NCBI RefSeq assembly: GCF_006345805.1
Contig: NC_043019.1
Location: 12,275,360-12,339,359 of the forward strand
Direction of reading: 5' to 3'
Length of the DNA stretch: 64,000 nucleotides
DNA from: Octopus sinensis
Lineage: Eukaryota
A model generated the notes under the pieces. That model was not told the origin of the DNA. It ran no database searches and worked only from the letters and a program-made list of their open reading frames with translations. The translations under genes and the position numbers were made by a program. Each line of letters opens with the position of its first letter. Positions within the stretch are counted from its first letter, which is position 1. Positions 5,888 to 63,992 of the stretch are shown here, one piece after another.

Positions 5888-6486
5888 GCTTACCAACCAC
5901 ATGGTTCCAGGTTCAGTCCCACTGCGTGGCACCTTGGACAAGTATCTTCTACCTATAGCCTTGGGCCGACCAAAGCCTTGTGGGTGGATTTGGTAGACGG
6001 AAACTGAAAAAGAAGCCCGTCATATATATATATATATATATATATATTCAAAATGTGACTGCGTGTGTACTGTTGGCGAATATTTTTTCCTCTGTCTTCC
6101 CTTCTCTGGATCTTTCCTTCTATGTTTCCGACGAAGAGCTCCGCTCGAAACATTAAACCCTCCTTCTTTCCTGAGCATCCAATAATACTATATTTGTTCC
6201 ACGTCCTCGCGTTGTTGTGTTTTTTTGTGCTTTCTTGTTTGGATTAACTTTATATATATATATGTGTATATGTGTGTGTTTGTGTGTCTGTGTTTGTCCC
6301 CCCAACATCGCTTGACAACCAATGCTGGTGTGTTTACGTCTCCGTAACTTAGCGGCTCGGCTAAAGAGACTGATAGAATAAGTACTAGGCTTACAAAGAA
6401 TAAGTCCTGGGGTCGATTTGCTTGACTAAAGGCGAAGCTCCAGCATGGCCACAGTCAAATGACTGAAACAAGTAAAAGAGTAAAAG
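5888..6486 (+). mobile_element. SINE family A carrying the 200-bp hammerhead element
   Basis: Family A sequence on both sides of 6053-6249. Confidence 0.8.
6053..6249 (+). mobile_element. ~200-bp TA-tract-inserted element with minimal hammerhead motif (6124-6158)
   Basis: GTTT-CCGACGA-A-GAGC-tcc-GCTC-GAAAC-ATT-AAAC. Same element and boundaries at 52119-52319. Confidence 0.65.
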
Positions 6487-6853
6487 TTCAATCTCCATCT
6501 AGTAGAACTGTGTATCACCATGTTATATAATGCACCTGATGATGAAGAGAGATTAAAATGGTTTAACATTTAGTGTTTGTACAGAACAAGAGAGAGAGAG
6601 AGAGAGAGAGGTATGGCTGTGTGGTTGAGAATCTCATTTTGCAACACTGTGGTTTTGGGTTCCGTCCCACTGTATAGCACCTTGGGCAAGTGTCGGCCAA
6701 GCCTCAGACTGACCAATGCTGTGTAAATTTAATTTGGTAGATGGAAACTGTGCAGAAGACTTTCATGTTTGTGTGAGTATATGTGTATGAGTGTACGTGT
6801 GTGTGTATATATATATTCACACATACACATGTGATGGGCTTCTTTCAGTTTCT

Positions 6854-7247
6854 TATTTCTTTATTGCCCACAAGGGGCTACAGACAAAGGGATTAAGTTG
6901 ATTACATCGACCCCAGTGCATAACTGGTACTTAATTTATTTATCCCGAAAGGATGAAAGGCAAAGTCGACCTTGGCAGAATTTGAACTCAGAACGTAACG
7001 GCAGATGAAATACCTATTTCTTTACTACCCACAAGGGGCTAAACACAGAGAGGACAAACAAGGACAGACAAAGGGATTAAGTCGATTATATCAACCCCAG
7101 TGCGTAACTGGTACTTAATTAATTGATCCCGAAAGGATGAAAGGCAAAGTCGACCTCGGCGGAATTTGAACTCAGAACGTAGCAGCAGACGAAATACCAC
7201 AAAGCATTTCGCCCGGCGTGCTAACGTTTCTGCCAGCTCTCTGCCTT
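6854..7247 (-). mobile_element. SINE family B dimer
   Basis: Head GGCGAGCTGGCAGAA...GAGTTCAAATTCC, body GCCTTTCATCCTTTCGGGGTCGAT. Two body units. ~15-bp TSD cttctttcagtttct. Confidence 0.8.
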
Positions 7248-8373
7248 CTTTCAGTTTCTGTCAACCAGATTCACAAGGCTTGGTCACCTGGGGCTATTGT
7301 AGAAGAGACTTGTCCAAGGTGCCATGCAGTTGAATTGAACCCAAAACAATGTGGTTGGGAAGCAAACTTCTTAACCACGCAGTGATGCCTGCACCTAGCC
7401 ATGCCTCTAGTTTCTGTTACTTAATTATCGCTTTGTATTTTACTATTACTCCTACTCCTTCCCAAATTCTAACTTCCTGGTGGACATTGTTATTGGTTCA
7501 TTATCCTGATGATGATGGCGTTGGTAGTGGTTATGGTGTTGACCTAATTAGTAAATGGAGTGAGGTGGGGCCAAAGATAGAGCAACAGAGGAAAATATTT
7601 AACATTTGAGTGAAAGAGCATTTTTTTTTTATCTACAAATGTTGTTGTTGCTGTTAGAGGAAGAGGAGGATGAAGAAGTGTGAGGGAGTAGGAGTGGTGA
7701 TTATCATCTTATGTGAAATCACAGAGCACTGGCAAACAGCAGGGAATCTGACCAGCTGAAAGACTGACCATCTGACTAACAAACCCTGGGAAATATTCAA
7801 CAGTGTAAAAACCATGAATAATCACCATATTTAATGGTGTAAGAAAGACACTGACACATTAGACACACCCCCAATTTCAGTAGCTCATATTCTGGAAAAA
7901 AATGTTTTTTAACATATCAATGCATTGTAATTATTAGCTTATCTATAGAAGTATAGAAGGCTCAAATTGCATATAGGATCTGGGTGAGTGGAGTGGAGTG
8001 GTGGTGGTGGTGGTGGTGTTGGGGACGTTGGACATTGTTTTCTTTGTAAAAAAAAAAATGTCTTTTATGCTATCAAATACTGTAAAACTGGTTTGTATAT
8101 GCAAGTTAGATATTACTTCTCGGTATTGATACTGCCACTGTTAACAATATATATATATTTTTAGAGTTTCTCTCATGGTTGTATACTGTTTGTTCTAACA
8201 GCACATCTCTCATGGTAACCACCACAGTATAGTCTGTTCTAACAGAACATCTGCATTTAAGTGGGGTAAATATTACTGCTCAATATTAATGCCACCTCTG
8301 GGGCTAATATGTATTTTTTAAGAAGCTCTCTGGCTAATTGCAACACCAGCACCTGTTCTGGTACTATTTTCCT

Positions 8374-8519
8374 ATATATCGCTGGTGGGGAGACGAATCA
8401 CTGGTATCTCTAGTAGTCAAGCATCCATCACCGATGAGACCAAGGAAGGTCGAAATCATGTGATCTGGTGGTCTTGGCGATAGAGATGGCAATGATTTAT
8501 CTCTCGATTAGCGATGTAA
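8374..8519 (+). ncRNA. Long hairpin capped by a degenerate hammerhead-like core
   Basis: CCGATGA-GACC-aaggaa-GGTC-GAAA at 8431-8455. The flanking arms pair (atatcgctgg...atctcta with tagagatgg...tagcgatgt). The cleavage-site region is degenerate. Confidence 0.55.
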
Positions 8520-9777
8520 ACAAGTGCACATTTTGCACCAAAAGCCCATATGAGAAGTTCTCCTGTGATAAATAATGCAGTATTTTGTGTTTTAAAACAT
8601 CTATTTTTTAAGTGAGAATAAATATTACTTTTTGGTATTAACCCTTAAAGTGCTGGGATTTGCACTTACATAGCATGGACTGCTGAGCACATTTTATGAA
8701 AATGAGACAACCATGCATACTTGAAAAACAAAAAATAGTTAAAATATATTCTTAGTATATAATGGTGGCAAGTTTTATATCATCTGAAAAGTCATTAGTT
8801 GAACTATTAGTGATTTTGTACATGACAGCACATGTTGTCAAGTATAAACAAATGAAATATAGGTACAGGAGTGGCTGTGTGGTAAGTAGCTGGCTTACCA
8901 ACCACATGGTCCCCGGTTCAGTCCCACTGTATGGCACCTTGGGCAAGTGTCTTCTACTATAGCCTTGAGCTGACCAAAGCCTTGTGAGTGGATTTGGTAG
9001 ATGGAAACTGGAAGAAGCCATTCTGGTGGGTATTGGAGCGTTTGAGTGATGTCAGACCCCAACAAACGCCCATAAAATAAATGCATCTCTCTGGGCCACG
9101 ATCGTAGCCTGTTGGCCTGTACTTGACGGCCATGATCATGGGCCATCATGCTTTATATGTTGACACTGCTTTTGTTGCTGATATATGAGGGTTAACAGTA
9201 TCTAACGTGGAGCAACAGCTCTCTATATTGTGTGTGTATGTGTGTGCGCGTGCGGGCATGTGTGTGCATGCGCATGTGTGCGTGTTTTGGTGGCATGTAT
9301 AGCACTAATAATACTATTATTGGATGAAGGATGGTCAAGGCTTTCCATGATTTTGGAGGAAGGATACACTCATTGATACTCTTGTGTGCACACACTCCCA
9401 TCCATCCATACATACATACATACATGCACGCACTTACAAACATACATATACACACGCATTCACATACATTCTCTGACAGAGGCAAACACACTCTGATATA
9501 CTTGAAACTGTTTTAATTATTTAAGTTGACATAGTTTTGAAGAGGCTTGTGTATCAGAAATTTTGATTTCTTGAATGGTGTAGTTAAAACTCTTCATGTG
9601 TACTCACGCATGCACTCTCTCAACTTTTTTCTGTTACCCTATTTCTATAGAAATACATTGACTGTATTCTTTCTTCTATTCTTTCTCTTCTTTCAGTCGT
9701 TAGACTGCGGCCATGCTGGGGCACCACCTTGAATTTTTAATCGAATGAATCGACCCTAGTACTTTTATTCTAGTTTC

Positions 9778-9975
9778 ATCATCATCATCATCATCGTTTA
9801 ACGTCCGTTCTCCATGCTAGCATGGGTTGGACGGTTCGACCAGAGGATCTGGGAAGCCAGGGGGCTGCACCAGGCTCCAGTCTGATCTGGCAATGTTTCT
9901 ACAGCTGGATGCCCTTCCTAACGCCAACCACTCCGTGAGTGTAGTGGATGCTTTTTACGTGCCACCGGCACAGGT
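9778..9975 (-). mobile_element. (ATG)n-tailed retroposon (RTE-type tail), family E
   Basis: GGAAGGGCATCCAGCTGTAGAAAC...CCAACCCATGCTAGCATGGA...GTTAAACGATGATG. Other copies at ~4985-5182, 18597-19040, 20145-20875, 38360-38580 and 59957-60205. Confidence 0.7.
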
Positions 9976-10308
9976 GTCAGGTGAGGCTTATTTCTTTAAA
10001 AGCCTGGTACTTATTCTATCGTTCTCTTTTGCTGAACTGCTATGTCATGGGGATGTAAACACCACAGCACAAGTCGTCAAGTGGTGGTGGGACACATGGC
10101 AGGCTTCTTTCAGTTTCCGTCTACCAAATCCACTAACAAGGCTTTGGTTAGCCTGTTGCTATCATAGAAGACACTTACCCAAAGTGCTACATAGTGTGAC
10201 TGAACCCAGAACCATGTGGTTGGGAAGCAAACTTTTTACCACACAGCCACTCCTGCGCAATTAATTTGTTATTAATTAATTATGAAAGTAATGATTAATT
10301 TTGTAAAA

Positions 10309-10710
10309 TAGGCACAGGAGTGGCTGTGTGGTAAGTAGCTTGTTTACCAACCACATGGTTCTGGGTTCAGTCCCACTGCATGGCACCTTGGGCAAGTGTC
10401 TTCTACTATAGCCTTGGGCCGACCAAAGCCTTGTGAGTGGATTTGGTAGATGGAAACTGAAAGAAGCCCATCGTAAATGTTTGGTGTGTGTGTTTGTGTA
10501 TGTTTGTGTGTCTATGTTTGTCCCCCCCAACATTGCTTGACAACCCATGCTGGTGTGTTTACGTCCCCCGTGACTTAGCAGTTCGGCAAAAGAGACCGAT
10601 AGAATAAGTACTATGCTCACAAAGAATAAGTCCTGGGGTCGATTTGCTCAACTAAAGGCGGTGCTCCAGCACGGGCACAGTCAAATGACTGAAACAAGTA
10701 AAAGAGCAAA
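10309..10710 (+). mobile_element. SINE family A, full length
   Basis: Matches the family consensus head to tail. Confidence 0.85.
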
Positions 10711-11026
10711 TTAATGCCCACATTCCATGCTGGCATGAGTTGGACAATTTTGCCAGGATTTGATTGGCCCAAGAATTACGCCATGCTCCAGTATCTGCTT
10801 TGGCATGGTTTCTACAGCTGGATGCCTTTCCTTGTTCTAGTTAGTGTTTGGAACGTGAATTGCTGTGAACTTTTGATGGAAGAATGTCTTCCTTTAGATC
10901 AGTTTAAAACAGGAAAATTACATCATGGAAGCAGGGGGTGTTCTCAGACAGTTTAGTATTAAAAGGGTTAATGACATACACTCCCATACAGGCAATTAAT
11001 CACATGCTTTCACATCCACCTTTCTC

Positions 11027-11058
<32 letters not shown>

Positions 11059-11353
11059 CCCCACACACACACACACACACACACACCACACACACACAGA
11101 GGAAATGGAGTATAATATTTCAGATGATTAAAAGTACTTGATAATTTCAAACTTGTTTTGTTTGTGTGTGTGTGAGAGAGAGAAAGAGAGAGAAGCACTG
11201 TAAGGTCAGGAAGTCGAAACTTCGAAGTCCCTGTCAACTTTATCCTTGTGAAAATCAATAAATTGTGTGCATTCTATGAAAAAGTACTGAGTAACTTTTC
11301 AGTTTCATGTGGACTTTTTTTATACATAACTTGTCATAAAAACAGCATATATA

Positions 11354-11394
<41 letters not shown>

Positions 11395-11576
11395 CACACA
11401 CACACAGACAGACACACACACACACATATGCATGCTTCCCAACCATGTGATCCTGGGTTCAGTTCCACTGTGTACCACTTTGGGTATTTTCTACTATTGC
11501 CATGGGCCAACCAAAGCCTTCTCGGTGGATTTGATAGATGGAAACTGAAAGAAACCTTTCGTTATATATATTCTTT

Positions 11577-11984
11577 TTAATTCTTTTACTTTTTCAGTCA
11601 TTTGTCTGCGACCATGCTGGAGCACTGCTTTGAAGGGTTTTTGTCGAATAGTTTGACCCCAGGACTTATTTTCAAGCATAGTACTTATTCTTTTGGTTTC
11701 TTTTGCCAAACTGCTAAGTCACAGGGACATAAACACACCGACAGCAGTTGTCAAGTGACGATGGAGGTAGGAACACATGCAAAGACACACACACATATGT
11801 ATATATACTCACACATATACGACGGGCTTCTTCCAGTTTCCATCTACCAAATCCACTCACAAGGCTTTGGTCGGCCCGAGGCTATAGTAGAAGACACTTG
11901 CCCAAGGTGCCATGCAGTGGAACTGAACCTGGACCATGTGGTTGGTAAGCAAGCTACTTACCACACAGCCACTCCTGTGCCTAT
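11577..11984 (-). mobile_element. SINE family A, full length
   Basis: Matches the family consensus. Confidence 0.8.
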
Positions 11985-12264
11985 AATTCATTTGTTTACA
12001 CTGACAACATGTGCTGTCATGTACAAAATGACATCTTCCAAATCTTGTTTTCTGACTGGGTATAAAATGATCAAACTTTAAGCCACTCTAACTTTTTGAA
12101 ATAAAAAAAAAATTCTGGAAAAAAGTGAATTATCTCCTGAGATCCAGCAAGGAAAATTTACCTCAATACACCAAATTGTAAAATTTTCACTAAACTTTAA
12201 CATTTTCACAGGTGCAACCAAACAGAAAAGATTCACAAAGTTCACTCACAGGGCATTTATCAAC

Positions 12265-12491
12265 TTAACCCTTTAGTGTTCTGATTATTCTATCAAACAT
12301 AATGCTTATTGATTCCCATTGATTTGAATTAATCATGCATTATCTCATATCTTCAAGATCTTGATGGTGTAATTACTTAATGTAGAATAACATTGTAGGG
12401 TAGGTGTGAGAGCCTGGATCTGGTCTGTTTGAACATAAAACAGATTAAATATTTTGGCCGGATATGGCCGGTTTAAATACTAAAGGGTTAA
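12265..12491. mobile_element. piggyBac-like MITE family 1
   Basis: TTAA|CCCTTTAG...CTAAAGGG|TTAA termini. Other copies at 37389-37615, 40743-40971, 44301-44528, 54841-55067, ~55905-56111 and ~1705-1925. Confidence 0.85.
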
Positions 12492-12984
12492 ATGATATTG
12501 TAGATGACACTCTCCCCCAAGCTGCTGTCCACTGGGATCAAACATAAAACCAGATTGTTGTAAATGAACTTCTCAGCTGAGTCTGTCCCTATATACATAT
12601 GAATGTGTTTTATACTTTTTGTTCATTGATATTCCATAAACCTGAATAGGTCGTTTAGGTCATTATTGAAGGGTGTTTCTTTGTGTAGTAGATTTAAGGT
12701 GACTCAGCCTGGTTGATCCCACCTCTGCCCCTTTGGGACTATTGATTTCAGATACAGGTACTGAAAATTTAGGGCTTGGGGCTGGATGTGAAATGCAGGC
12801 ATATGTTCTACAGTTAGTGTTGGTGTGTGCTGGTAGTTGTTGTTGATGGTTAGTGCTGTAGTTAGTGTTTGTGTTAGCGTGGTGGTGGTACTGCAGGGCT
12901 TTCATTGCTCTGATTTCTTTACTGGATGACTAGACGTAGAGCCATTAATCTACTGTGTTTACGCATGCACACTAACAGTCATAT

Positions 12985-13825
12985 TCTCTCATACACACAC
13001 AATCTTTCTCTCACTCTCTCTCTCACACACACACTCTCTCACACACACTCTCTCACACACAATCTCTCTCACACACACACACTCTCTCTCACTCTCTCTC
13101 TCACTCTCTCACACTCTCTCACACACTCTCTCTCACTCTCTCTCTCACACTCTCTCTTGCACACTCTCTCTCGCACACTCTCTCTTGCACACTCTCTCTT
13201 GCACACTCTCTCTTGCACACTCTCTCTTGCACACTCTCTCTTGCACACTCTCTCTCGCACACTCTCTCTCTCGCACACACTCTCTCGCACACACTCTCTC
13301 GCACACACTCTCTCGCACACACTCTCTCGCACACACTCTCTCGCACACACTCTCTCGCACACACTCTCTCGCACACACTCTCTCGCACACACTCTCTCGC
13401 ACACACTCTCTCGCACACACTCTCTCGCACACTCTCTCCCACACACTCTCTCCCACACACTCTCTCCCACACACTCTCTCCCACACACTCTCTCCCACCA
13501 CACTCTCTCCCACACACTCTCCCACACACACTCTCTCACACACTCTCTCACACACTCTCTCCCACACACACACTCTCTCTCACACACTCTCTCCCACCAC
13601 ACTCTCTCTCACTCTCTCACACACACTCTCTCTCACACACACTCTCTCTCAAACACTCTCTCAGAAACACTCTCTCACTCTCTCTCTCACACACACCCTC
13701 TCTCTCACTCACTCTCTCTCTCTCTCACACTCTCTCACACTCTCACACACACTCTCACATACATACACACGCTCTCTCTCTCTCTCTCATACACTCAATG
13801 TCACTCACTCACTCACTCAATCACA
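12985..13825. repeat. Compound CA/CT microsatellite with 14-16-bp higher-order units
   Basis: tctctcttgcacac, then tctctcgcacacactc, then tctctcccacacactc blocks. Confidence 0.9.
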
Positions 13826-14808: not shown

Positions 14809-15080
14809 CAGGGCTGTGGAGTCTGAGCCTGAAACAATTAAGGGGTAGCTGGAGTCAGAGTCTGTAAAACTTTACTGACTCTGATTCCAAGTCACAATAT
14901 CTTTATTCTTTAATATAAACCAGTTATAACATATAAGCCTATTCAAAGACATGCATATGCTTTATGAGATATGGAGACCACAATCACTTAATTTCATAAA
15001 GAGGAGTCAGAGTCAAAGGTGCCAATGGTACAGGAGTCAAAATCAGAATCGAAGTTTTTCGTTTCGACTCCACAGCCCTG
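14809..15080. mobile_element. hAT-like MITE
   Basis: TIR CAGGGCTGTGGAGTC / GACTCCACAGCCCTG. Imperfect 8-bp TSD atttttaa / ctttttac. Confidence 0.75.
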
Positions 15081-15431
15081 CTTTTTACGATCAACCGCTT
15101 TACAAAGTGTGCTAGGTGCACTTTTTTTTCTACATGGCTCCACCCCTAGTGATGATCTCCTTCAGCCTCATATGATTCGTTATTGTACATCTGTGTGTGT
15201 GGTGTGGTTTGTAGTTGGGTGACGTAGGGGATAACTGGAAAGACGAATAAGTGGGTCACCCCTCTGGATCGGTCACCCCTCATCGTTCTGCCAACCACCG
15301 ACTTGCTATACATTCAGTCAATCAGGACTGTTGTTTTGGAGCCATCAACCATTATCACCAGCGCCACTACCATCAATGCCATTGCCATGAGAACCATCTT
15401 CATTTGCATTACAACCCCCCTTACCATCATA

Positions 15432-16218
15432 CCTATTTCTTTACTACCCACAAGGGGCTAAACATAGAGGGTACAAACAAGGACAGGCAAACGGATTAAG
15501 TGGATTATATCGACCCCAGTGCGTAACTGGTACTTAATTCATTGACCCCGAAAGGATGAAAGGCAAAGTCGACCTCGACGGAATTTGAACTCACAATGTA
15601 ACGACAGACGAAATACCTATTTCTTTACTACCCACAAGGGGCTAAACATCGAGGGGACAAACAAGGACAGACAAACGGATTAAGTGGATTATATCGACCC
15701 CAGTGCGTAACTGGTACTTAATTCATCGACCCCGAAAGGATGAAAGGCAAAGTCGACCTCGACGGAATTTGAACTCAGAACGTAACGACAGACGAAATAC
15801 CTATTTCTTTACTACCCACAAGGGGCTAAACATCGAGGGGACAAACAAGGACAGGCAAACGGATTAAGTGGATTATATCGACCCCAGTGCGTAACTGGTA
15901 CTTAATTCATTGACCCCGAAGGGATGAAAGGCAAAGTCGACCTCGGCGGAATTTGAATTCAGAACATAAAGACAGATGAAATACCTATTTCTTTACTACC
16001 CACAAGGGGCTAAACATAGAGGGTACAAACAAGGACAGACAAACGGATTAAGTGGATTATATCGACCCCAGTGCGTAACTGGTACTTAATTCATTGACCC
16101 CGAAAGGATGAAAGGCAAAGTCGACCTCGACGGAATTTGAACTCACAATGTAACGACAGACGAAATATGGCTACGCATTTCGCCCGGCGTGCTGACGGTT
16201 CTGCCAGCTTTCCACCTT
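15432..16218 (-). repeat. SINE family B tetramer (4 x 184 bp plus one head)
   Basis: Units start at 15432, 15616, 15800 and 15984. Confidence 0.9.
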
Positions 16219-18844: not shown

Positions 18845-19385
18845 ATCTGATCTGGCAGAGTTTCTACAGCTTGATGCCCTTCCTAACGCCAACCACTCCG
18901 AGAGTGTAGTGGGTACTTTTATGTGCCACCGGCATGAGGGCCAGTCAGGCAGTACTGGCAACGGCCACGCTCAAATGGTGCTTTTTACGTGCCACCTGCA
19001 CAGGAGCCAGTCCAGGTGCAATGGACATTGGTGTTTTGCTATTTTTGTGGCTTATCAACATCATGTACCTGAACTGAACCTGAGGTAGATTGAATAGCCA
19101 GTCCATGGGAATATGTAAAATGGTTTCAAATCCATCTTCTGGTAGCCTGAACAATGCACATGTAGGATCAGATTAGAAGCAGAATGAGCATTGTAAACAT
19201 TGTCGAACATGCATACATAATGTATCTACTTTGCTTGTTTGCTTGTCAGCTGTGATTTGATATAGTGGAGATGACCCTCTCAAAGCACTGGGTGTTAAAA
19301 CACCTGAAAGGCAACACTTAATATAAACAGAGGTGACACTTAACAAATATAAACTCTGAGAGCTGCCTAACCCCATCCTGCAGTA

Positions 19386-20289: not shown

Positions 20290-20875
20290 GGTGCCTTCCA
20301 TGTGTTGCTGGCATGGGTGCCTTCCATGTGTCGCTGGCACGGGTGCCTTCCATGTGTTGCTGGCACGGGTGCCTTCCATGTGTTGCAGGCACGGGTGCCT
20401 TCCATGTGTCGCTGGCACGGGTGCTTTTCATGTGTCACTGGCACGAGTGCCTTTCACGTATCACCAGCATGGGTGCCTGTCACATGTCACTGGCACAGGT
20501 GCTTTTCATGTGTCACCAGCACTGTTGCCGTTCATGTATCACCAGCACAGGTGCCCCTCGTGTTGCGGGTACAGATAGGTGCCTTTCATGTATTACTGGT
20601 ATGCAACATGGCTATGTTTTAGATGTCACCAACACCGGCACCTTTTATGTGTCACTGGCATGGGTGCCTCTCACATGTCACCAGTATAAGTGCCTTTCAT
20701 GTGTCACTAGGCCATGGCATGGTTGCGTTTTACATGTCACTGGTGCTTTTCATGCATCACCGGCACAGGTGCCTTTTACATGTCCCCAGCACAGGCACTG
20801 GTGCTTTTGCACGTCACCAGAACGACTGCCTTTCCTGTGTCACTAGCATTGGTGCCTTTTACGTGTCACTGGCAT
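20290..20875. repeat. 26-bp minisatellite (~22 units)
   Basis: Unit gggtgccttccatgtgtcgctggcac at 20315, 20341, 20367 and on, decaying rightwards. Confidence 0.85.
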
Positions 20876-27460: not shown

Positions 27461-27516
27461 GTGCATGCTTGTGTGTGTATGTATATATGTATACTTCGAA
27501 ACTAGCTGAGTGGACA

Positions 27517-27600
27517 GTCCCTGAAGAAGATGCACAGAAAATCATTCCTGGTTGCATGTGCAACTGCCTGTATTTTGTGCAGTGGAAACACGTGTAGGCC
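27517..27600 (+). ncRNA. Hammerhead ribozyme motif with extended stem II
   Basis: GTCC-CTGAAGA-(stem tgcacagaa/ttttgtgca with inner gttgca-tg-tgcaac hairpin)-GAA-ACACGTGT-A-GGCC. Canonical core, palindromic stem III, GUA triplet, one mismatch in stem I. Confidence 0.6.
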
Positions 27601-27696
27601 ATAAAAATATGCCGAATGAAATTATAAAATAAGAGGAAATAAATCTTGAGGCTGAACAAGTTTCCATATTCTATATTGTTATAATTATTGTTTATT

Positions 27697-28294
27697 AAGG
27701 TGGCGAGCTGACAGAATTGTTAGCATGCCGGGCGAAATGCTTAGCGGTATTTCGTCTGTCGTTACGTTCTGAGTTCAAATTCCGCCGAGGTTGACTTTGC
27801 CTTTCATCCTTTCGGGGTCGATAAATTTAGTACCAGTTTCACACTGGAGTCTATGTAATCAACTTAATCCCTTTGTCTGTCCTTGTTTGTCCTCTCTGTG
27901 TTTAGCCCCTTGTGGGTAATAAAGAAATAGGTTTTTCGTCTGTCGTTGCATTCTGAGTTCAAATTCCACCGAGGTCGACTTTGCCTTTCATCCTTTCAGG
28001 GTCGATTAAATAAGTACCAGTTACGCACTGGGGTCGATGTAATCGACTTAATCCCTTTGTCTGTCCTTGTTTTTTCCCTCTGTGTTTAGCCCCTTGTGGG
28101 TAATAAAGAAATAGGTATTTCGTCTGCTGTTACGTTCTGAGTTCAAATTCCGCCGAGGTTGACTTTGCCTTTAACCTTTTCGGGGTCGATAAAGTACCAG
28201 TTTCGCACTGGGGTCGATGTAATCGACTTAATCCCTTTGTCTGTCCTTGTTTGTCAACCTCTATGTTTAGCCCCTTGTGGGTAGTAAAGGAATA
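27697..28294 (+). repeat. SINE family B trimer
   Basis: One head plus three body units. 25-bp TSD at 27672-27696 and 28295-28319. Confidence 0.9.
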
Positions 28295-45276: not shown

Positions 45277-46010
45277 TTTTGTTTTGCAAGTTCAAATACT
45301 GTTTCGTTGGACTGTGTCATTTACAGTTCTGGCTTTTTTTGGGTAACATAGGCACCAAACAAAGAATGTAAAGAAAAGACCCAATCTTGCACATTGACTG
45401 GAATATTTTAAACTTATTTCATTCTAATTTCTGATCTCACATTTTGCTGGCTTGCAGCATAACTCTATATGACTCACCACACTTGTCTCGACTATTCTCC
45501 TGCTGTCTGCCCTTTACAAGATCCGTCTCCGTTCTCTCTCTCTTTAGTTCTACTTCAATGAAAAATAGTTAGCATTTCTAAGAGTTTCTTGACAAAGTCT
45601 TTGAACCAGTTTTCACCAAAACTTTCTCTCAAGAAGGCAATGAACTCTAGACTGACAGATCTAATTATGATGGTGAATTCCTTCCATCAAGGAAGACAAC
45701 TGTTAGGTTTTCTTGAAATCTGAAGTTTTTTTTGAGCAGCTGCTTCTGGTGTTTGTTTATACACACATACAAATGTAAATATACATATACACACACACAA
45801 ACAAACATACATATATATATACATACACACACACACACACACACGTTTAAATAATGGCTAAACTAGCAATATGACCATTCCGAAATATAACAATATATAT
45901 ATATTATATCATATATTATATACATATCTATATATATATATCACACACACACACACACACCACACACACACACACACACACACCACGCCACACACACACA
46001 GAACACACAC

Positions 46011-46076
46011 ACACAACGCGAGGACATGGAGCAAGTATAGTATTATTTTATTGGACGCTCAGGAAAGAAGGAGGGT
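46011..46076 (-). mobile_element. Truncated copy of the 200-bp hammerhead element (3' part only)
   Basis: acaacgcgaggacatggagcaagtatagtatt...ggacgctcaggaaagaaggagggt is the reverse complement of the region downstream of the motif in the 6053 and 52119 copies. Confidence 0.7.
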
Positions 46077-47593: not shown

Positions 47594-47693
47594 NNNNNNN
47601 NNNNNNNNNNNNNNNNNNNNNNNNNNNNNNNNNNNNNNNNNNNNNNNNNNNNNNNNNNNNNNNNNNNNNNNNNNNNNNNNNNNNNNNNNNNNN
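47594..47693. other. Assembly gap (100 N)
   Basis: Run of 100 n, so contiguity across it is not guaranteed. Confidence 0.99.
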
Positions 47694-48417: not shown

Positions 48418-48537
48418 ATGCTTACTGCACCTAGGTTTCCCAAGCGGTCACCCATCTAAGTACTGACTAGGCTCAACGTTGCTTAACTTCGGTGATCAGA
48501 CGAGAACCGGTGCTTTCAACGTGATATGCTTGTTGCA
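48418..48537 (-). rRNA. 5S rRNA copy, probably a dispersed pseudogene/retrocopy
   Basis: Reverse complement reads CATATCACGTTGAAAGCACCGGTTCTCGTCTGATCACCGAAGTTAAGCAACGTTGAGCCTAGTCAGTACTTAGATGGGTGACCGCTTGGGAAACCTAGGTGCAGTAAGCAT, matching metazoan 5S with internal A/C boxes. First ~9 nt are divergent, there is no oligo-T terminator, and it is a single copy inside a SINE. Confidence 0.9.
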
Positions 48538-51927: not shown

Positions 51928-52328
51928 TAGGCACGGGAGTGGCTGTGTGGTAAGTGGCTTGCTTACCAACCACATGGTTTTGGGTTCAGTCCCACTGCAT
52001 GGCACTTTGGGCAAGTGTCTTCTGCTATAGCCTCAGGCCGACCAAAGCCTTGTTGTGAGTGGATTTGGTAGACGGAAATTGAAAGAATCCTATCGTATAT
52101 ATGTGTATGTATGTATGTATGTGACTGCATGTGTACCGTTGGCGATTTTTTTCCTCTGTCTTCCCTTCTCTGGATCTTTCCTTCTCCCATGTTTCCGACG
52201 AAGAGTTCCGCTCGAAACGTTAAACCCTCCTCCTTCTTTCCTGAGCATCCAATAATACTCTATTTGTTCCATGTCCTCGCGTTGTTGTGTTTTTTTGTGC
52301 TCTCTTGTTTGGATTAACTGTATATATA

Positions 52329-55067: not shown

Positions 55068-55170
55068 ACCGGCCATATCCGGCCTAAATATTCTACATGT
55101 CTTATATTCAAATAAACAATCATTGAAACCTCAAAGCTGTAAGATAATGCATGATTAATTAAAAACAATT

Positions 55171-55511
55171 AATAAATCTCCGAACGAGATGTAAACAGTA
55201 ACCACTCGACAACGTAAAGTGTACTAGCCATCTGAATGTGGCTAGCCACTGGGGGTGGGTGTTACTGAAGCTTTTAGCCCCAGGAGATCATCGTCTCCAG
55301 CTGGCTTTAGACACACTTTCTGTGCCCTTCTGATATTCGCTGGGAAAAACATTAGATATTCGCAAACAGGTCTTTTCAATCGAAAACCGGTGATTACCGT
55401 ACGTTGACGAGAGGCAAAAACCTCGAAACTATAGTCCGTATGTATCACTTAGGTTTTCGAGAGGGGATGACCTCCCTTTGCGAATATCAGAAGGGCACAG
55501 AAAGTGTGTCA
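55171..55511 (+). mobile_element. Hammerhead-containing structured insertion (Penelope-like/retrozyme-type candidate)
   Basis: 14-bp TSD aattaaaaacaatt at 55157-55170 and 55512-55525. Perfect 31-bp inverted repeat 55310-55340/55480-55510 encloses the ribozyme motif. Inserted in a piggyBac-like MITE. Confidence 0.7.
55400..55440 (+). ncRNA. Type I hammerhead ribozyme motif
   Basis: TACG-TTGACGA-GAGG-caaaaa-CCTC-GAA-ACTATAGT-C-CGTA: stems I, II and a palindromic stem III, GUC cleavage triplet, C3U core variant. Confidence 0.8.
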
Positions 55512-56456
55512 AATTAAAAACAATTTGAGTGAAAAATTATTACATTTAACAGAGTAATCTGAACACTAAAGGCGGGGCGAGCTGGCAGAAACGTCAGCAT
55601 GCCGGGCGAAATGCTTAGCGATATTTTGTCTGTCTTTACGTTCTGAGTTCAAATTCCGCCGAGGTTGACTTTGTCTTCCATCCTTTCGGGGTCGATAAAT
55701 TAAGTACCACTTGCGTACTGGGGTCAATCTAATCGACTGGCCCCATATCCAACATTTCGGGCTTTGTGTCTAGAGAAGAAAAGAATCCGAACACTAAAGG
55801 GTTAAACACCAAAATTACACTTCAAGTTTCACTGTTAAAAACACAGGTTTTCTTTCTTATTTTCCAGTCTGTACAATTGAAGTAGCATTTAAACTGGCCA
55901 TAAATATAACTGGGCCCAAATATTTTACTGGGCCCAGTTATATGTTCAGCCCCAGATAAATCTGGCTTCTCACACCTACCATACAATGACATTCTAAAAA
56001 TAAACAAAGGCATCATTAAAATCTTGAAGGTACAAGATAATAAATAATAAACTTAAAGCAATAAGAATAAATATTACATTTGACAGAGTAATCTGTATGC
56101 TAAAGGGTTAAATTAAGATAGCTATTCATGTAGAATACTTAACATATATACACCATTGACAGGCAAGTCACTGCAGTTTTCATCAGAGATAAAATCTCTT
56201 ATGGGCATCTATCTCTATCCGCTCAGTCGAAGTCGACTCTCGGTCACTCGTTGGATCAGTGTCCTCCAGTCAGTTCTATCCTGGGCTGCTTCTTTCAGAC
56301 TGGCTATGTCCATTCTGTTTTTGTTTAAGGTAAAATCTCATTTAAGCATATGGCTGGCTGTGAATATGTCATTGACAAAACCAAACAAGGCTGAAATGAA
56401 TGCATCTAGTATTCCTGTTAGCCATTGTTGTCTCATGATATGTTTTTAAACACAGT

Positions 56457-56790
56457 ATGTGGATTCCATGGACAGCGAGGCTCACCAATGGAGAAGTTCT
56501 TTAGCAGATAAGGCCGAAAATGTCGCTAGAAGCTAGGATCACCAAGCGTAGATTGGCATATTTCGGTCATATTATGCGGAGAAAATCCCTGGAGAAGGAC
56601 ATCATGCTTGGAATGGTCAGTGGCAAGAGAGGAAGAGGCCGACCAAGAACCTGCTGGCTTGACACCATCAAGAGTGATACCGGAATGGACATGGCCAATC
56701 TGAAAGAAGTGGCCAGGATAGAACTGACTGGAGGACACTGATCCAATGAGTGACCGAGAGTTGACTTCGACTGAGCGGATAGAGAGAGAT
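56457..56790 (+). mobile_element. RTE-clade LINE 3' fragment (degenerate ORF C-terminus)
   Basis: IPWTAR..N.EVL...SLEARITKRRLAYFGHIMRRKSLEKDIMLGMVSGKRGRGRPRTCWLDTIK matches the RTE/BovB-type RT C-terminus. It has a stop and a frameshift. Confidence 0.85.
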
Positions 56791-56814
56791 GCCCATAAGA
56801 GATTTTATCTCTGA

Positions 56815-57192
56815 CTAGCAGTATCGCCCGGCGTTGCTCGGGTTTGTAAGGGAAATAACTATAAAGCATTTTTAGAGAGTTATAGCCAAAAAATAGCAAA
56901 AAAATGGAAAAAAAATTATGGTAAATTTTTTTTTGAGAGTTAAAAAGGTCGAGTTGCGTCTCCTAGACAGTCTGTGGTTTGTGTTTCTGATTCTCGACCC
57001 CATGTCGAATTTATCGATTTTTTTTCAGAACTGGGGGAACTTTTCAAAATTTTCGCTGCGTTAGTTTTGAATTATGACATTGGGCTATGTGTGTGTCAAG
57101 TTTCATCAGAATCGGTTGAAAGCCGTGGTCAGGGTGAGGGTACAACCTGACAGACACACAGACAGACAAACTGCCGTTTATATAGAGAGAGA
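56815..57192 (-). mobile_element. Non-autonomous Helitron (same family as 33139)
   Basis: Reverse complement of the 33139 element. It splits ...ctctga|tgaaaac..., whose empty site is seen in the inverted copy at ~56175-56195. Confidence 0.85.
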
Positions 57193-57432
57193 TGAAAACT
57201 GCAGTAACCTGCCTGTGAATGGAGAATATGCATTAAGTATGATATATAGGTGGCTATTTTGAAATAAAATTAGTGAAATAAAATGAATGTGAAATTTTTG
57301 GCAAATGTTTAATGTACATTACTAAATGGTTGTTTTTCTTTCTGTTTTGCTTCTAGATTTAAAGCATATGTCAGTGAGATTTGTGCTTTTGGGCAGCGTG
57401 AATTTAGCGCCGATGTACTTCCCTTCGACAGC

Positions 57433-57727
57433 ATGGAGGAAACCTACATCTACGTAGCAAACTATGAGTACACCCCGGACGTCAACCACAAGGGGGACAT
57501 TGCTATCTCAGTTGGTGACCAGCTGCTGGTCACCACACCAGTCTCTTCCAATTTTAAAGGCAGCCTAGAGAAACCGGAGGGCTGGCTGCGAGGAGTCAAC
57601 GTCAACAAGAATGTTTGTGGGAATTTCCCCGGTAATTATGTGCGGTTTGAGGGGAAACTGCCCCCCAGAGATCCACCACCCCCATACAGACAACCTCAGA
57701 ATACCGAATTACGTCCTTGCACAGAAA
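57433..57727 (+). CDS. PIK3R1: Coding part of exon 57357-57727: SH3 domain plus Pro-rich linker, PI3K class IA regulatory subunit p85-like (partial gene)
   Basis: Translation MEETYIYVANYEYTPD...GDIAISVGDQLLV...EKPEGWLRGVNVNKNVCGNFPGNYVRFEGKLPPRDPPPPYR has SH3 motifs with the long insert and GWLxGxN...GxFPGxYV typical of p85, then a PxxP linker. Acceptor: pyrimidine tract + ttctag ending 57356. Donor: gtgagt at 57728 (phase 1). The PIK3R1/2 paralog assignment cannot be resolved. Confidence 0.8.
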
Positions 57728-58559
57728 GTGAGTATTTTTAACCGACCTTTTTTGCTTTCACCTACTTAAGTGGGATTAACTGTAATACTCAGTGTTTGCT
57801 TGGGGCAGAAAGGGCTCCTTAGCCGTAGTGAAGGCAATCTATCTAGGGAGATAACCTTACAATAAATCACTGGGTCCATAGCTTAGAAATACTGGGTTGA
57901 TGTCCAGCGGGAACAGCTTTGTTTCATGGAGGAGGAAAGATCTTTAGTACTTGGTTGTACAATGCTTTCCGATGTGTGTAGTAGTGGCGCGCGCACACAT
58001 TATTAGCCATTTGAAAAGACTATGAAAGTCTCGACCACGGTCGAACAATGATGATGATGATGATGTTTGCTTTACCTGATCCCTTGAAGTGCAAAAACAT
58101 AGGTATAGGCTCTCTGAGTTTTGGGAAGCTATATAAGGCATTGGTTCTCAAACAGGGTCCAAATAAGATTTTGTTGGGGTCCACACAACAAAATAGTAAA
58201 TCAGGGATCCACAATAGTATTTTAAGGCTCCTTAAAAAAACAGTTTTGCTTTGGATGTGTGGCATGTATTGCAAGGCGCAGCCTTAGAAGCAGGGGAGAC
58301 AACTCCAGTGTTAGTTGCCCATTCGTCTGTGCAGCTCTGTTGCAGAAAAATGGTATCGAAAGTGCTTGTGACTAATAGTGGATGAGGAGGAGTGGGATCT
58401 TGAAGTGAAACTAGGGAGAAATAAGAGTTGTTACAGGTGACCATCACCACTCAAATTTTATTATGATATAAATAGAACAAATTGTTTTAGAGAGAGAATT
58501 CGTTTTTACATCTGGTTTTTCTATACTAGCATAGGTAAGGTGAATACACACACACACAC

Positions 58560-58776
58560 ATGAGGGGGTGCTGTAAAATTTCTGGCTTTAAAGGTATCTT
58601 GAAAGGCCTGGTTAGAGGCCCAAACGTCCAAGTTCTTTTACAGGGCTTAGAAAAACTGAAGGGCCGCTTGCAATAAGTACGTGAATCTGAGAGGGGAATA
58701 TGTTCTATAAAATCATAATTAACAGATCCTCCTGTATTTTCTTTTACGCGAAGCAAGGAATTTTTCAGCACCCCTA
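58560..58776 (+). mobile_element. Mariner-derived deletion element; second partial copy ~58925-59455 split by a Helitron
   Basis: TIR-like GAGGGGGTGCTG...CAGCACCCC. Internal GLEKL..R...VNLRGEYV* resembles a mariner transposase C-terminus. Confidence 0.65.
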
Positions 58777-59006
58777 CTTACAGATTTTCGGCACATTTAG
58801 ATATTTAACAAAAGTTTAAACACTTTATTGCAAATTTTATTCAGATGGCGGTGCCCCAGCATGGCCACAGCTCGTGAACTGAAACTAGATAAAATTAAAT
58901 TATAATACTGACACCCCATTCTGGAGCAACCTTTCGAGTTCTTTTTATAGGGCTTAGAAAAACTGAAGGACAATTGCAATAAGTGTGTGAATCCGACAGA
59001 GGAAAA

Positions 59007-59383
59007 TCTTTATATATAAAAGTGAAGTTGTGTGTCTGTCTCCTACGATTTAGATTCCTAACTACTCCCACATTTTGCGGTGCAGTTTAACCAAAACCGG
59101 GTATCTTATAGTCAGGATTCATATCGAGCCCTTCTGGGTATTAGCGCGCGTCTACGATGAGTCTACGTCTTTTTCCATTTTAATGCATTTTTTTCGCTAT
59201 TATATAAGGGAAGTAACTCTCTAAAATGTCTACGATGAGTCAACGATTTAAAAAAAAATTTACCATAATTTTTTTTTCCATTTTTAATGCATTTTTTTTG
59301 CTATTTTTTGGCTATAACTCTCTAAAAATGCTTATATAGTTATTTCCCTTACAAACCCGAGCAACGCCGGGCGATGCTGCTAG
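59007..59383 (+). mobile_element. Non-autonomous Helitron, second subfamily
   Basis: A|TCTTTATATATAAAA...CCCGAGCAACGCCGGGCGATGCTGCTAG|T. Shares only the 3' ~130 bp with 33139. Confidence 0.85.
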
Positions 59384-60771
59384 TGTTGAATAAAATCTTA
59401 ATTAACTGATCCTCCTGTATTTTCTTTTACCCAAAGCAAGGAACTTTTCAGCAGTATATATTGTTGAAAAATTGCTTTTCCTGCTGGATGTCCTTCTTGT
59501 TTCTAACTCTTAGCTGTTCTTCACTCAATGAGGTTTTTTCTTCTGTTTGTCTGGGGCAGTGGAAATGGCAACAGGGAACACTGACCATAGCTAATGCAAT
59601 CACAGAATATAAACCTACGTGACACCACTTGTAGGGCAGTGACATTCGTTTACAACTACCATATGATGTCAAAACAAAGTGGTGTAAAACACACCAGCAC
59701 ATGCACACCACATATGCAACAGGCATATATGTATGGACACCTGCAATCTCATACATGCACACTTTTGTTCATGTATACATAAACATAAACATGGATGGTA
59801 CAAGTGTCTCTCTGTGGTTTAGAAGCTTGTTTCCTAGCTACATGTTTCCAGGTTCACTTCACCTTCATGGTATCTTGAGCAAGTGTCAGTCTAAGCTGAC
59901 CAAAACTACATGACTGGATTTGGTAGACAGAAACTTAAAGAATTATGTTGCATATATCATCATCATCATCATCATCGTTTAGTGTCCGCTTTCCATGCTG
60001 GCATGGGTTGGACGGTTCAACCAGGTCTGTGAAGCCAGAAGGCTGCATCAGGCCCAGTCTGATCTGGCAATGTTTCTACGGCTGGATGCCCTTCCTAACG
60101 CCAACCACTCCGTGAGTGTAGTGGGTGCTTTTTACGTACCACTGGCACAGGTGCCAGACGAGGCTGGCAGACAGCCATGATCGGATGGTGCTTTTTACAT
60201 GCCATGTTATGAGATGTAATGGTGTCATTGAGACCCAAAGGTGTCAGGGAATGCTGAATAAGTGCTATAGATGGACCGTAGTTAAGTTCCAGGTTCAGTG
60301 ATAATGCGAATAAGGGGTTCAACGTTGGTCATATGTTAGCATGTGTATACAAAAATTTTTTTCGTGATCAGATAAAAAATCCAAGGCTTTGTAGATTTTA
60401 GAACATTTATATCTATAAATGTTCTAAAATCTACACACCCTTGGTTTTTTATCTCATTACAAAAAAAATTTATATATATATATATATATTGTTCTTTTAC
60501 TTGTTTCAGTAACTTAATTGTGGCCTTGCTAGAGCACCATTCTAAAGGGTTTTAGTCAAAGAAATTGACACCAGGACTTATTCTTTGTAAGCCTAGTACT
60601 TATTCAATCAGTCTCTTTTGTTGAATCACTAATTTACGGGAACATGGTTGTCAAACAATGGCAGATGGACAGACACACACACACACGCATAAATAAATGA
60701 ATATATATATAATATATATATATATATAATATATATATATATACTTTATTTAAAAGCAGCAGAAATTCAAC

Positions 60772-60819
60772 AAAACCTGTTACTCTTAGTTTCATGTTCC
60801 CGTTCGTTGGACAGTTTTT
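60772..60819 (-). ncRNA. Degenerate hammerhead-like motif in a TA-tract-inserted element (~60743-60888)
   Basis: Reverse complement: aaaaCTGT-CCAACGA-ACG-ggaa-CAT-GAA-ACT-aag-AGT-A-ACAGgtttt. The deviations are consistent with CpG decay. Confidence 0.5.
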
Positions 60820-60886
60820 GTTAACTCTACCCCTGGTATTTGAGTACTCTTTTTTCCACCTTGTTTCACATTTATGTATTTACTCC

Positions 60887-60932
<46 letters not shown>

Positions 60933-61301
60933 ACACACACACACACGATGGGCTTTTTTCCGTTTCCATCTACCAAATTAACTCACAAGGCTTTGGTCGG
61001 CCTGATGCTATGGTAGAAGACACTTGCCCAAGGTGCCATGCAATGGGACTGAACCCCAGAACCATGTGGTTGCAAAGCAAGCTTCTTACCACACAGCCAC
61101 ACCATCCTTTACTTGTTTCAGTCATTAGACTGCAGCCATGCTTAGGTAGGACCTTGAAGAATTTTTAGCTGGATGAATTTATGCTGTGGCTTATTCATTT
61201 TAAGCCAGGCACTTAATTTATCCATCTCTTTTGCTGAGCAGCTAAGTTATGTGGACATAAACTAACACCAGTTGTCAAGCAGTGTCGGAGGACAAACACA
61301 G

Positions 61302-61342
<41 letters not shown>

Positions 61343-61587
61343 TGACAATCTTTTTTGGTTTCCATCTATGAAATCTACTCACTGAGGATATAGAAGACAC
61401 TTGCCCAAAGTGCCACGCAGTGGAACTGAACCTAGAACCATGTGGTTGGGAAGAAAGCTTTCTTACCATGGGAGTGTGTTTTCGTGCCTTTTCGTTTTGA
61501 CATTATTTGATTGTTGTAAACGAGTGTCACTGTTATACAAGTGGTGTCGTTCATTTCCTATTTCTTTAAAAATCATGTCCAGTCATG

Positions 61588-61990
61588 TAGGCGCAGGAGT
61601 GGCTGTGTGGTAAGTAGCTTGTTTACCAACCACATGGTTCCGGGTTCAGTCCCACTACGTGGCACCTTGGCAAGTGTCTTTTACTATAGCCTCGGGCCGA
61701 CCAAAGCCTTGTGAGTGGATTTGGTAGACGGAAACTGAAAGAAGCCTGTCGTATATATGTATATATATATAATATGTGTGTGTGTATATGTTTGTGTGTC
61801 TGTGTTTGTCCCCCTAGCATTGCTTGACAACCAATGCTGGTGTGTTTACGTCCCCGTCACTTAGCGGTTCGGCAAAAGGGTCCGATAGAATAAGTACTGG
61901 GCTTACAAAGAATAAGTCCCGAGTTGCTCGATTAAAGGCGGTGCTCCAGCATGGCCGCAGTCAAAATGACTGAAACAAGTAAAAAAGAGA
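61588..61990 (+). mobile_element. SINE family A, full length
   Basis: Matches the consensus. Confidence 0.85.
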
Positions 61991-62503
61991 AAAAGAGAGA
62001 GTCATAGTGAACTATTACCTTGTTTGGAAATAGGTGAGGGTTGGCAACGGGAAGAGCATCTGGCTGTAGAATATCTGCCTTTAGAATATCCGTCTAACTC
62101 GTGCAAATATGGAAAAGTAGATGTTAAATCTGATGGTACTCATAAGCCAATGAATTGGACTACTATGTGTACACAGAATCTGCTAGAAACAGCAACTAAA
62201 TCTCCCTTAAATTTTACCATACCACAAAAAAAAAAAAAAGACCCCAGTGTAAAACCCATTTTATACTGTCATCTCAGATATGCTATGTTTGAAATTGTAA
62301 TAGGATGGTCATGGTTGGATTTTCTTCGCTAGTTTGGCTGAATCAAGGCTGATCTCAGAGAAAACGTGTTCACACATTTTGCTGGGTAACGTACTAGCTC
62401 AAGGGACGTAACTTTAGGTGAATTGTATGGTAGCCTGGAGATTATTTCCCCTTTGTTTGTTTTCATCAATGTTCAACAGCTTTCATAATTTCAACGCCAT
62501 TGC

Positions 62504-62541
<38 letters not shown>

Positions 62542-62971
62542 CCTTTCTACTAAAGGCACAATGCCTGAAATTTGTGGGGAGGGGACAAGTCAATTACATC
62601 GACCACAGTGTTTCACTGGTACTTAATTTATTGACCCTGAAAGGATAAAAGGCAAAGTTGGCCTCGGCAGAATTTGAACTCAGAACGTAGTAATTGGATG
62701 AAATGCTGCTAAGCATTTTTGTCTAGCACACTTAATGATTGTGCCAGCTTGCCGGCTTCTGGTGGAACTTCTTAATCACACAACCATGCTGATGTCTGTT
62801 TTTAAAAAAAGTGTGTCTGTTCTTTTATTATTGTTTCTTTTACTTGTTTCAGTCATTAGACTGTGGCCATGCTGGAGCACCGCCTTGGAAGATTTTAGTT
62901 GAATGAATTGATCCTAGTACTTGTTTTTAAACATGATACTTATTCTATTAGAGCCTTTTTGCCGAACCACT

Positions 62972-63219
62972 AGATCTAGCCACTTTCCTCGCAGGTCTAG
63001 CCCCTTTCCTCGCAGGTCTAGCCCCTTTCCTCGCGGGTCTAGCCACTTTCCTCATAGGTCTAGTCACTTTCCTCGCAGATCTAACCCCTATCCTTGCAGG
63101 TCTAACCCCTTTCCTTGCAGATCTAGCCCTTTTCTTGCAAGTCTAGCCCCTTTCATCGCAGGTCTAGCCCCTTTCCTCGCAGATCTAGCACCTTTCCTCG
63201 CAGGTCTAACCCCTTTCCT
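62972..63219. repeat. 21-bp minisatellite (~12 units)
   Basis: Unit aggtctagcccctttcctcgc. Confidence 0.9.
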
Positions 63220-63271
63220 ATATATATACTTGGAAATGGATGCGTCACGTTCAGTTAAATGACAAATAATG

Positions 63272-63302
<31 letters not shown>

Positions 63303-63309
<7 letters not shown>

Positions 63310-63550
63310 GCATATATGGGTACAGGATGTCACCAACTGTGCAAATAACAAGAAATACACAAACAAACGAGTTAAATATGTAAACAAGGAGAAGAAATAG
63401 ACAACCGACAACTGATGAAGGGTCCTTTCTCTGTGTTTACTTGTCCTGTTTTCCATTTTTTCTCGTTGTATACGAATTTTACTCAATTCTTTATGTATTT
63501 CATGTTATTTGCACTGTTGGTGATGTCCTGTACCCATACATGCATGTATA
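63303..63550. mobile_element. Foldback MITE in a TA tract
   Basis: Imperfect arms of ~105 bp starting atacatgcat.tatgggtacagga. Confidence 0.75.
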
Positions 63551-63598
63551 TATATGTGTGTGTGTGTGTGTGTATGTATATATATATATATATATATA

Positions 63599-63800
63599 TA
63601 GTATAGGACAATTAGTAAGTTGTCATAATAGAACTCAGAGTTTCAAATGCCAGAGCTAAAAGCTTTGATGCATTTTCATTGGCTATTTGGACGGTTTTAT
63701 CATAGCATCTATCGTCCAAATAGCCAATGGAAATGCCTCGAAGCTTTTAGTCCAGCATTTGAAACTCTGAGTCCTATTATGATAACTTACTGATTGCCTT

Positions 63801-63805
<5 letters not shown>
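63599..63805. mobile_element. Foldback MITE in a TA tract
   Basis: Near-perfect arms of ~95 bp around a spacer of under 20 nt. Confidence 0.8.
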
Positions 63806-63836
<31 letters not shown>

Positions 63837-63956
63837 GCCATGATAGATTGTTAGCCACTACACACATTTTTTTTCTCTCCTTGTTTTTTTTCTCTCTTTT
63901 TTCTTCTCTCCTTTTTTTTTCTCTCCTTGTTTCTCTCCTCGTTTTTTTCTGTGTCC

Positions 63957-63992
63957 CTTTCTGTAGAAGAGTGTAGGCTCAAAACGTAAAAG
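63957..63992 (+). ncRNA. Degenerate minimal hammerhead-like motif in a TA-tract-inserted element (63833-64000, runs off window)
   Basis: CTTT-CTGTAGA-A-GAGT-gtag-GCTC-AAA-ACGT-A-AAAG. Same architecture as 52191, with two core deviations. Confidence 0.45.

Follow-up and report, generated by a model that had tools for sequence, protein, structure and literature searches.

A 64,000-nucleotide stretch of the Octopus sinensis genome (NCBI RefSeq assembly GCF_006345805.1, contig NC_043019.1, positions 12,275,360 to 12,339,359 of the forward strand; hereafter, the window) contains seven sequences that resemble hammerhead ribozymes, several of which depart from the consensus catalytic core CUGANGA / GAAA / UH. 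This raises the questions of whether the motifs are genuine, which elements brought them there, and whether elements with an altered core still depended on self-cleavage. We consider it very probable that the motifs are decayed type-I hammerheads, located at the 3΄ ends of 5΄-truncated Penelope-like elements (PLEs) in the repeat families designated here as A, D, E and G, and likely F, and within likely retrozymes in families B and C, and that the source elements tolerated changes in the core, such that fast cleavage was likely not required. The evidence comes from family membership, from remnants of reverse transcriptase (RT) and/or GIY-YIG endonuclease that lie upstream of A, D, E and G, from tandem units and inverted 5΄ pieces, from flanking TA sequence and from the core changes themselves. 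The elements, for which no long open reading frames (ORFs) were found in the window, are listed below by window position.

6054-6249 (+): short copy of family A, between TA/TG tracts
6124-6158 (+): hammerhead of this copy, minimal type-I; core C4, with an A bulged out after A9 and the ACGU palindrome degraded to ACAU
8205-8630 (+): family B, a 351-bp repeat present as about 1.2 units; boundaries approximate
8425-8471 (+): family B hammerhead, canonical-layout type-I; family core mostly U3.G8, C4 private
27494-27690 (+): family D, 3΄ end of a PLE with a CxCx5C linker
27517-27600 (+): family D hammerhead; canonical CUGAAGA core, long stem II, A.G at the base of stem II, one stem I mismatch in this copy
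45997-46074 (-): 3΄-part fragment of family A without a hammerhead
52120-52319 (+): short copy of family A; hammerhead at 52191-52225, core C4
55169-55340 (-): family C insertion, inverted 5΄ piece
55340-55511 (+): direct piece of family C, covering part of a 354-bp unit
55398-55442 (+): family C hammerhead, canonical-layout type-I; core U3.G8, palindromic stem III, GUC site
60744-60888 (-): family F, inserted in (TA)n; a direct piece is joined to an inverted 3΄ tail
60772-60819 (-): family F hammerhead; family core C4, copy decayed at G5 and stem II
63318-63535 (no strand): element with inverted repeats, lying in TA tracts; at 63412 (+) it carries half a hammerhead core, in which a canonical first core strand ends after four stem bases; probably a PLE end
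63601-63803 (no strand): family G as an inverted pair within (TA)n, one hammerhead at 63627-63687 (-) and the other at about 63719-63778 (+); C4 in the family core; 3΄ end of a CxCx5C-linker PLE
63834-64000 (+): family E copy, running on to about 64082 in locus L081
63957-63992 (+): family E hammerhead, minimal; family core CUGUNGA (U6), copy also G12A

All seven sequences were found where the original prediction had placed them, and the motif reported at 8427 is present with its limits better drawn at 8425-8471 and AUC as its cleavage triplet. The window was scanned with a type-I hammerhead descriptor in which C was allowed at core position 4, and local dinucleotide-shuffled windows served as the control. 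The strict descriptor gave two real matches and none in each of 20 shuffles, and four against a mean of 0.5 (8 shuffles) when one extra mismatch was allowed; a second descriptor with one mismatch gave five against 1.6 (10 shuffles). With two mismatches, the latter returned 33 real matches compared with 27.8 in shuffled sequences (10 shuffles), which is the level of chance. The motifs at 6124, 8427, 52191 and 55400 are accordingly above chance, whereas those at 27517, 60772 and 63957 are not: the last was recovered solely at the chance-level setting, and the other two were matched by no descriptor used. The reality of these three therefore rests on family evidence. An Rfam scan of the window gave no above-threshold hammerhead; Hammerhead_HH9 matched at 8413-8487, with 28.7 bits against a gathering threshold of 52. 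A weak HH9 match at 19002-19076 (-) was dropped after inspection showed no recognizable core.

Every motif belongs to a high-copy repeat family. Genome searches with each motif region returned at least 40 matches, with 329 to 3582 first-look candidates from which 40 were scored, and these figures are not copy numbers. Twenty loci were taken per query, and the tallies given hereafter describe the top 20-30 loci by similarity to the window queries rather than the whole genome; cores were tallied by fuzzy anchors over the loci at hand, and copies with damaged anchors were excluded. In the family alignments, the motifs are better kept in other copies than in those of the window, the stems show compensatory changes between subfamilies, and the motif scan, the alignments and the pair counts agree on three helices surrounding the core in the right order. 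The window copies carry private damage in stem III (6124), in G5 and stem II (60772), at G12 (63957) and in stem I (27517), and as single copies they are likely inert.

The adjacency to TA microsatellites that had been noted for five motifs was borne out, since a (TA)5+ tract occurs no more than 150 nt away from five of the seven, compared with 19% of random positions (P = 0.003); the B and C motifs are 267 and 2569 nt away, respectively. At the family level, a TA run is found at the 3΄ end in 19/20 copies of A, 14/20 of E, 14/19 of F and 12/20 of G. The suggested 6:1 strand bias amounts to noise (P = 0.125; 8:3 with further copies, P = 0.23), and the window's short interspersed nuclear elements (SINEs) are near even in orientation (21:14, 15:12 and 15:15 for three queries). 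Microsatellites also separate copies elsewhere: three short A copies lie 275-286 bp apart in L002 and E copies 231 bp apart in L141, with TA/TG microsatellite between units as if it were part of the repeating unit.

The genome contains intact ORFs of 775-781 amino acids (aa) that match RVT_1 (just under the cut-off) and GIY-YIG in Pfam, and these are followed by hammerheads of their own, including a U3-A8 form. These PLE families (L173, L174, L148-L171), which also carry an upstream ORF, are apparently young; in one of them, the U3-A8 hammerhead lies 570-820 nt past the stop codon. The families of the window were linked to PLEs through their longer copies. For family A, 30 long copies were obtained by querying with an older copy that extends further on its 5΄ side. 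In two of the five extended to 10 kb (L303 and L304), remnants of RT and endonuclease lie about 2-3 kb upstream on the same strand; the two copies share 3.2 kb at 75%, and the RT piece shows 41% identity to an intact PLE ORF from this genome (E = 2e-34). For family E, RT and/or endonuclease remnants were found upstream in all five extended copies. A CX4CxxC linker is present in L304 (A) and L307 (E), and A has paired cysteines inside the GIY-YIG domain, as read by eye across frameshifts.

For families D and G, the coding evidence consists of the endonuclease, with the CxCx5C linker read by eye. In 5 of 30 D loci, including the query's own, a match to a GIY-YIG-like domain with this linker starts 830-880 nt upstream of the hammerhead region. 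For G, such a domain was found upstream on the same strand in six hammerhead-bearing loci among 32 examined, and shared DNA is continuous from the endonuclease domain to the hammerhead. The hammerhead of A, D, E and G thus sits in a pseudo-long terminal repeat (pLTR) at the 3΄ end of the element. Long A and E copies have variable 5΄ ends and inversions occur in C, F and G, in keeping with the 5΄ truncation, inversion and tail of PLE insertions; F copies combine an inverted 3΄ tail, present on one side, with a direct piece whose start lies shortly before the ribozyme. Judging from the linker definitions of Craig et al. 2021 (PMC8557442), A and E appear to be of Neptune type and D and G of Hydra type, although the Hydra RT motifs RWK and DKT were not seen for D and G. 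According to the same work, Neptune has a CCHH motif in the endonuclease, which the paired cysteines of A match, and Hydra has none.

Several leads were discarded. By way of L118, G had been connected with the GIY-YIG family in L144/L159, but this appeared to be a chance neighbor, and the CxCx5C link took its place; the co-occurrence of A, E and F in 30 GIY-YIG loci reflected independent insertions in mixed orientation; and a first tblastn screen was swamped by SINE translations. Related forms were also noted. One D subfamily (L064, L066, L067, L069, L074, L077 and L078) has an extra base in the first core strand (CUGAAYGA), and further hammerhead families with a very long stem II (40-70 nt) occur downstream of endonuclease remnants in L238, L239, L214, L222, L224, L225 and L229, some of them with decayed C4-type cores.

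Families B and C have a different anatomy. C forms four head-to-tail units of 354 bp in L057, and B shows periods of 340-360 bp in five of seven loci tested and other periods in two. Both consist of a tandem unit within 150-450 bp that bears a canonical type-I hammerhead and lacks an ORF, and they are likely non-LTR retrozymes (LTR, long terminal repeat). Folded as a circle and compared with 40 shuffles, the C unit scores z = -4.7 and the B unit z = -2.9. C usually has an inverted 5΄ arm; because this arm differs in length from one copy to the next and duplicates the 3΄ part, the interpretation of the inverted repeats as a DNA transposon (miniature inverted-repeat transposable element) was rejected. 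The C unit and its head-to-tail joint are covered by contigs of three sequencing runs, guessed to be RNA, and one large unlabelled run, but the joint also occurs in genomic tandems, so the contigs are uninformative regarding expression or circles. No change reaching 10% was seen at core positions 3 and 8 in the contigs aligned to the unit.

The original prediction had assigned the motifs to about six unrelated elements. A and E, however, are sisters, given the CX4CxxC linker in both and 68% DNA identity over about 123 nt around the hammerhead, together with similar RT and endonuclease, and the families reduce to about four lineages: A/E; D; G, probably with F; and B and C. No significant DNA similarity was found between B and C or between F and G, and the kinship of the latter pair is suggested solely by shared ribozyme features.

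We further examined the core of each family and found that the consensus is kept at the family level by D and long A only. Among 65 distinct A copies, C4 occurs in 30/38 short and 0/27 long ones. In a tree of A built with the core excluded, 27 C4 copies group with one U4 copy in a clade that is nested among U4 copies and has support of 99/86; the remaining three C4 rows lie outside it, two of them on long branches, and the bootstrap is not fully settled. These patterns indicate that C4 marks a young, short, non-coding clade of A derived from U4. In G, C4 is present in 40/44 copies, with the CpG decay products CA (12) and TG (3), while the 10.1-11.1 pair varies among A-U, G.U and G-C; the endonuclease-linked G copies also have C4. 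F has C4 in 18/19 of its own and 5/7 incidental copies. E has U6 in 24/25 of its own and 14/15 incidental copies, and also in its coding-linked long copies. B has U3 in 21/28 copies and C4 in 2/28, so that the C4 at 8427 is a private mutation. C has U3 in 25/26, mostly with G8, and its relatives carry C3-G8 (L173) or U3-A8 (L190). In 21 distinct C/B-type rows, 94.9% of cells are paired and 8 of 13 pairs show two-sided change, a level reached in 0/500 shuffles, with two rows misaligned in stem I and a shuffle control that ignores relatedness. Position 3:8 is a valid pair (U.G, U-A or C-G) in all 21. The proposal that several motifs share C4 thus stands at the family level for 6124, 52191 and 60772 and fails for 8427; that of a single lineage-specific core variant does not hold, C4 being a derived state in A, an old one in G and a private mutation at 8427. 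The inverted G pair and the family-wide U6 of E and U3.G8 of B and C had been overlooked.

We propose that the GIY-YIG endonuclease of these elements would nick AT-rich or (TA)n DNA, as suggested by PLE work (PMC11167929, PMC4209133), and that RT would copy the RNA from its 3΄ part. As published PLE biology leads one to expect, most insertions would stop early and leave a 150-250-bp pLTR end with one hammerhead; a palindromic stem III would, as in published PLE work, allow dimers. B and C units were likely moved by the same enzymes. Source elements would have kept the three-way fold under selection while tolerating C4, U6 and U3.G8, and because families with a changed catalytic core nevertheless spread, fast unaided self-cleavage was likely not needed for spreading. 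This fits the account of an anole PLE, in which hammerhead catalytic mutants inserted normally in vitro and cleavage needed added protein (PMC11167929).

Several observations weigh against this account: a TA run is found at the 3΄ end in 5/18 D copies; no coding partner was found for F, B and C, whose link to PLE enzymes is drawn from anatomy; A, D, E and G yielded only broken remnants, and no intact full-length ORF, in the stretches fetched; the clade names are drawn from linker motifs; and sequence by itself cannot separate a relaxed need for cleavage from slow or protein-assisted cleavage. Nor did the stretches fetched contain a full pLTR-ORF-pLTR partial-tandem copy of A, D, E or G. We nevertheless regard it as extremely unlikely that the motifs are chance matches in AT-rich repetitive DNA. 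The similarity of real and shuffled counts at two core mismatches and the Rfam result would be expected of chance matches, but the enrichment at strict settings, the better motifs in other family copies, the stems that vary yet stay paired and the position at PLE 3΄ ends, which is the published one, would not, and the family alignments already refute this idea. Scarcely more probable is the boldest reading of the original prediction, a novel class of ribozyme-bearing retroelements that target microsatellites and have no relation to PLEs. No coding partner has been identified for F, and the short A copies, whose 5΄ end is fixed, occur in TA/TG-spaced tandems, as might be seen in such a class; however, four families trace to PLE RT/GIY-YIG remnants, short A is nested inside long, PLE-linked A, and F shows the PLE anatomy of inversion plus tail. 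What survives is that these are ribozyme-bearing retroelements, several of them associated with (TA)n; the supposed radiation belongs to the known system that comprises PLEs as well as non-LTR retrozymes.

A more serious alternative concerns the functional step only: the altered cores might be fully working ribozymes under selection, acting as dimers or with the element's protein, in which case the core consensus would be wider than assumed. G retains C4 across subfamilies whose 10.1-11.1 pair varies, and does so in a CpG where one deamination would restore the canonical U4; position 3:8 remains paired throughout the C/B-type rows; a natural viroid U4C variant is described as infectious despite low in vitro activity (PMC3088659); and the protein requirement of the anole hammerhead (PMC11167929) would also suit this explanation. 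However, changes of A6 are expected to leave activity low (PMC3088659), yet E is among the most abundant families; the change from U4 to C4 in A is confined to the short non-coding clade, as relaxed selection predicts; and 8 of 9 frog retrozyme dimers are reported to show no cleavage (bioRxiv 10.64898/2026.07.22.740005). On balance we find working altered cores possible but improbable, and tolerated core changes with dispensable fast cleavage the better explanation. It may also be ventured, tentatively, that PLE and retrozyme sources fixed three core changes (U4C at least twice independently, A6U and U3.G8) while compensatory selection kept the fold through thousands of copies, the hammerhead being mainly a structural RNA or a protein-dependent ribozyme with a wider core. 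If so, sister pairs (U4 long A and C4 short A; A and E; and the C3-G8, U3-A8 and U3.G8 relatives of C) would directly test the role of PLE hammerheads.

Besides these elements, the window contains an exon at 57433-57727 (+), running from an ATG start to a GT donor; the SH3 domain it encodes most closely resembles that of the PI3K regulatory subunit p85 (E = 4.5e-6, PDB); the hammerhead elements near it probably lie in introns or upstream of that gene. An isolated 5S rRNA copy at 48422-48537 (-; 89 bits) with a damaged terminal stem is likely a pseudogene or a 5S-derived repeat. Tandem arrays of a 184-bp SINE-like repeat occur at 15429-16167 (four copies) and 27746-28294 (three copies) on opposite strands, with many dispersed copies; a 26-bp minisatellite derived from a common repeat lies at 20290-20555 and about 47593, and a 100-N assembly gap near 47600.

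PLE hammerheads are described as nearly universal, poor cleavers in vitro and dispensable in one insertion assay. The motifs share with those reported previously (PMC4209133) the type-I fold, a short stem I, an extra base after A9, a minimal palindromic stem III, and the presence of many families per genome, mostly as single truncated copies with some inverted pairs 100-700 bp apart. The U3-A8 variant is also shared, although here it occurs in PLE families other than those of the seven motifs. Whereas U3-A8 is the sole core variant named in the available text of that report, C4 (short A, F and G) and U6 (E) are family-wide here, and F and G mostly have A-U or G.U in place of G10.1-C11.1. As described for Neptune and Hydra (PMC8557442), which are both tied to microsatellite or (TA)n targets, these elements have a C-terminal GIY-YIG domain, a CX2-5CxxC (A, E) or CxCX5C (D, G) linker, a (TA)n insertion bias, an inverted 5΄-truncated piece and a one-sided tail; the differences are an F tail of about 65 nt rather than 30-40 nt and an assignment made from the linkers of broken ORFs.

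B and C resemble the metazoan non-LTR retrozymes of Cervera and de la Pena 2020 (PMC7229834) in their 150-450-bp tandem units (350-390 bp in mussel), canonical type-I hammerhead, low GC content, self-pairing and co-occurrence with PLEs; they differ in carrying U3.G8 at the core pair and are known here from their sequence. Retrozymes have been proposed to derive from PLE pLTRs (Li et al. 2026 preprint, 10.64898/2026.07.22.740005), and short family A, a non-coding family arising from a PLE end, illustrates this proposal within one genome. U4C (viroid), A6C (phage) and U3-A8 are among the natural core variants of Perreault et al. 2011 (PMC3088659), as rare single examples there, whereas the changes here mark whole high-copy families, and the text available names neither A6U nor U3.G8. 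A recent octopus repeat annotation lists active Penelope families, with ribozymes unmentioned in its accessible part (PMC13282606). The literature text searched (including PMC6765202 and PMC6155905) yielded no family-wide C4, U6 or U3.G8 core for PLEs or retrozymes, and an earlier report is possible.

PLE hammerheads, their many families per genome, the (TA)n bias, the inversions and the retrozymes have all been published. Lunse et al. reportedly described small PLE-associated hammerhead variants and may already include some of the variant cores. The present families escape standard CUGANGA descriptors and Rfam thresholds, and hammerheads in such genomes are therefore likely undercounted. The system is a known one in which the family-wide core variants are modestly new, and nature has supplied matched pairs in this genome, where a source element acquired a change at one core base and went on to spread widely.

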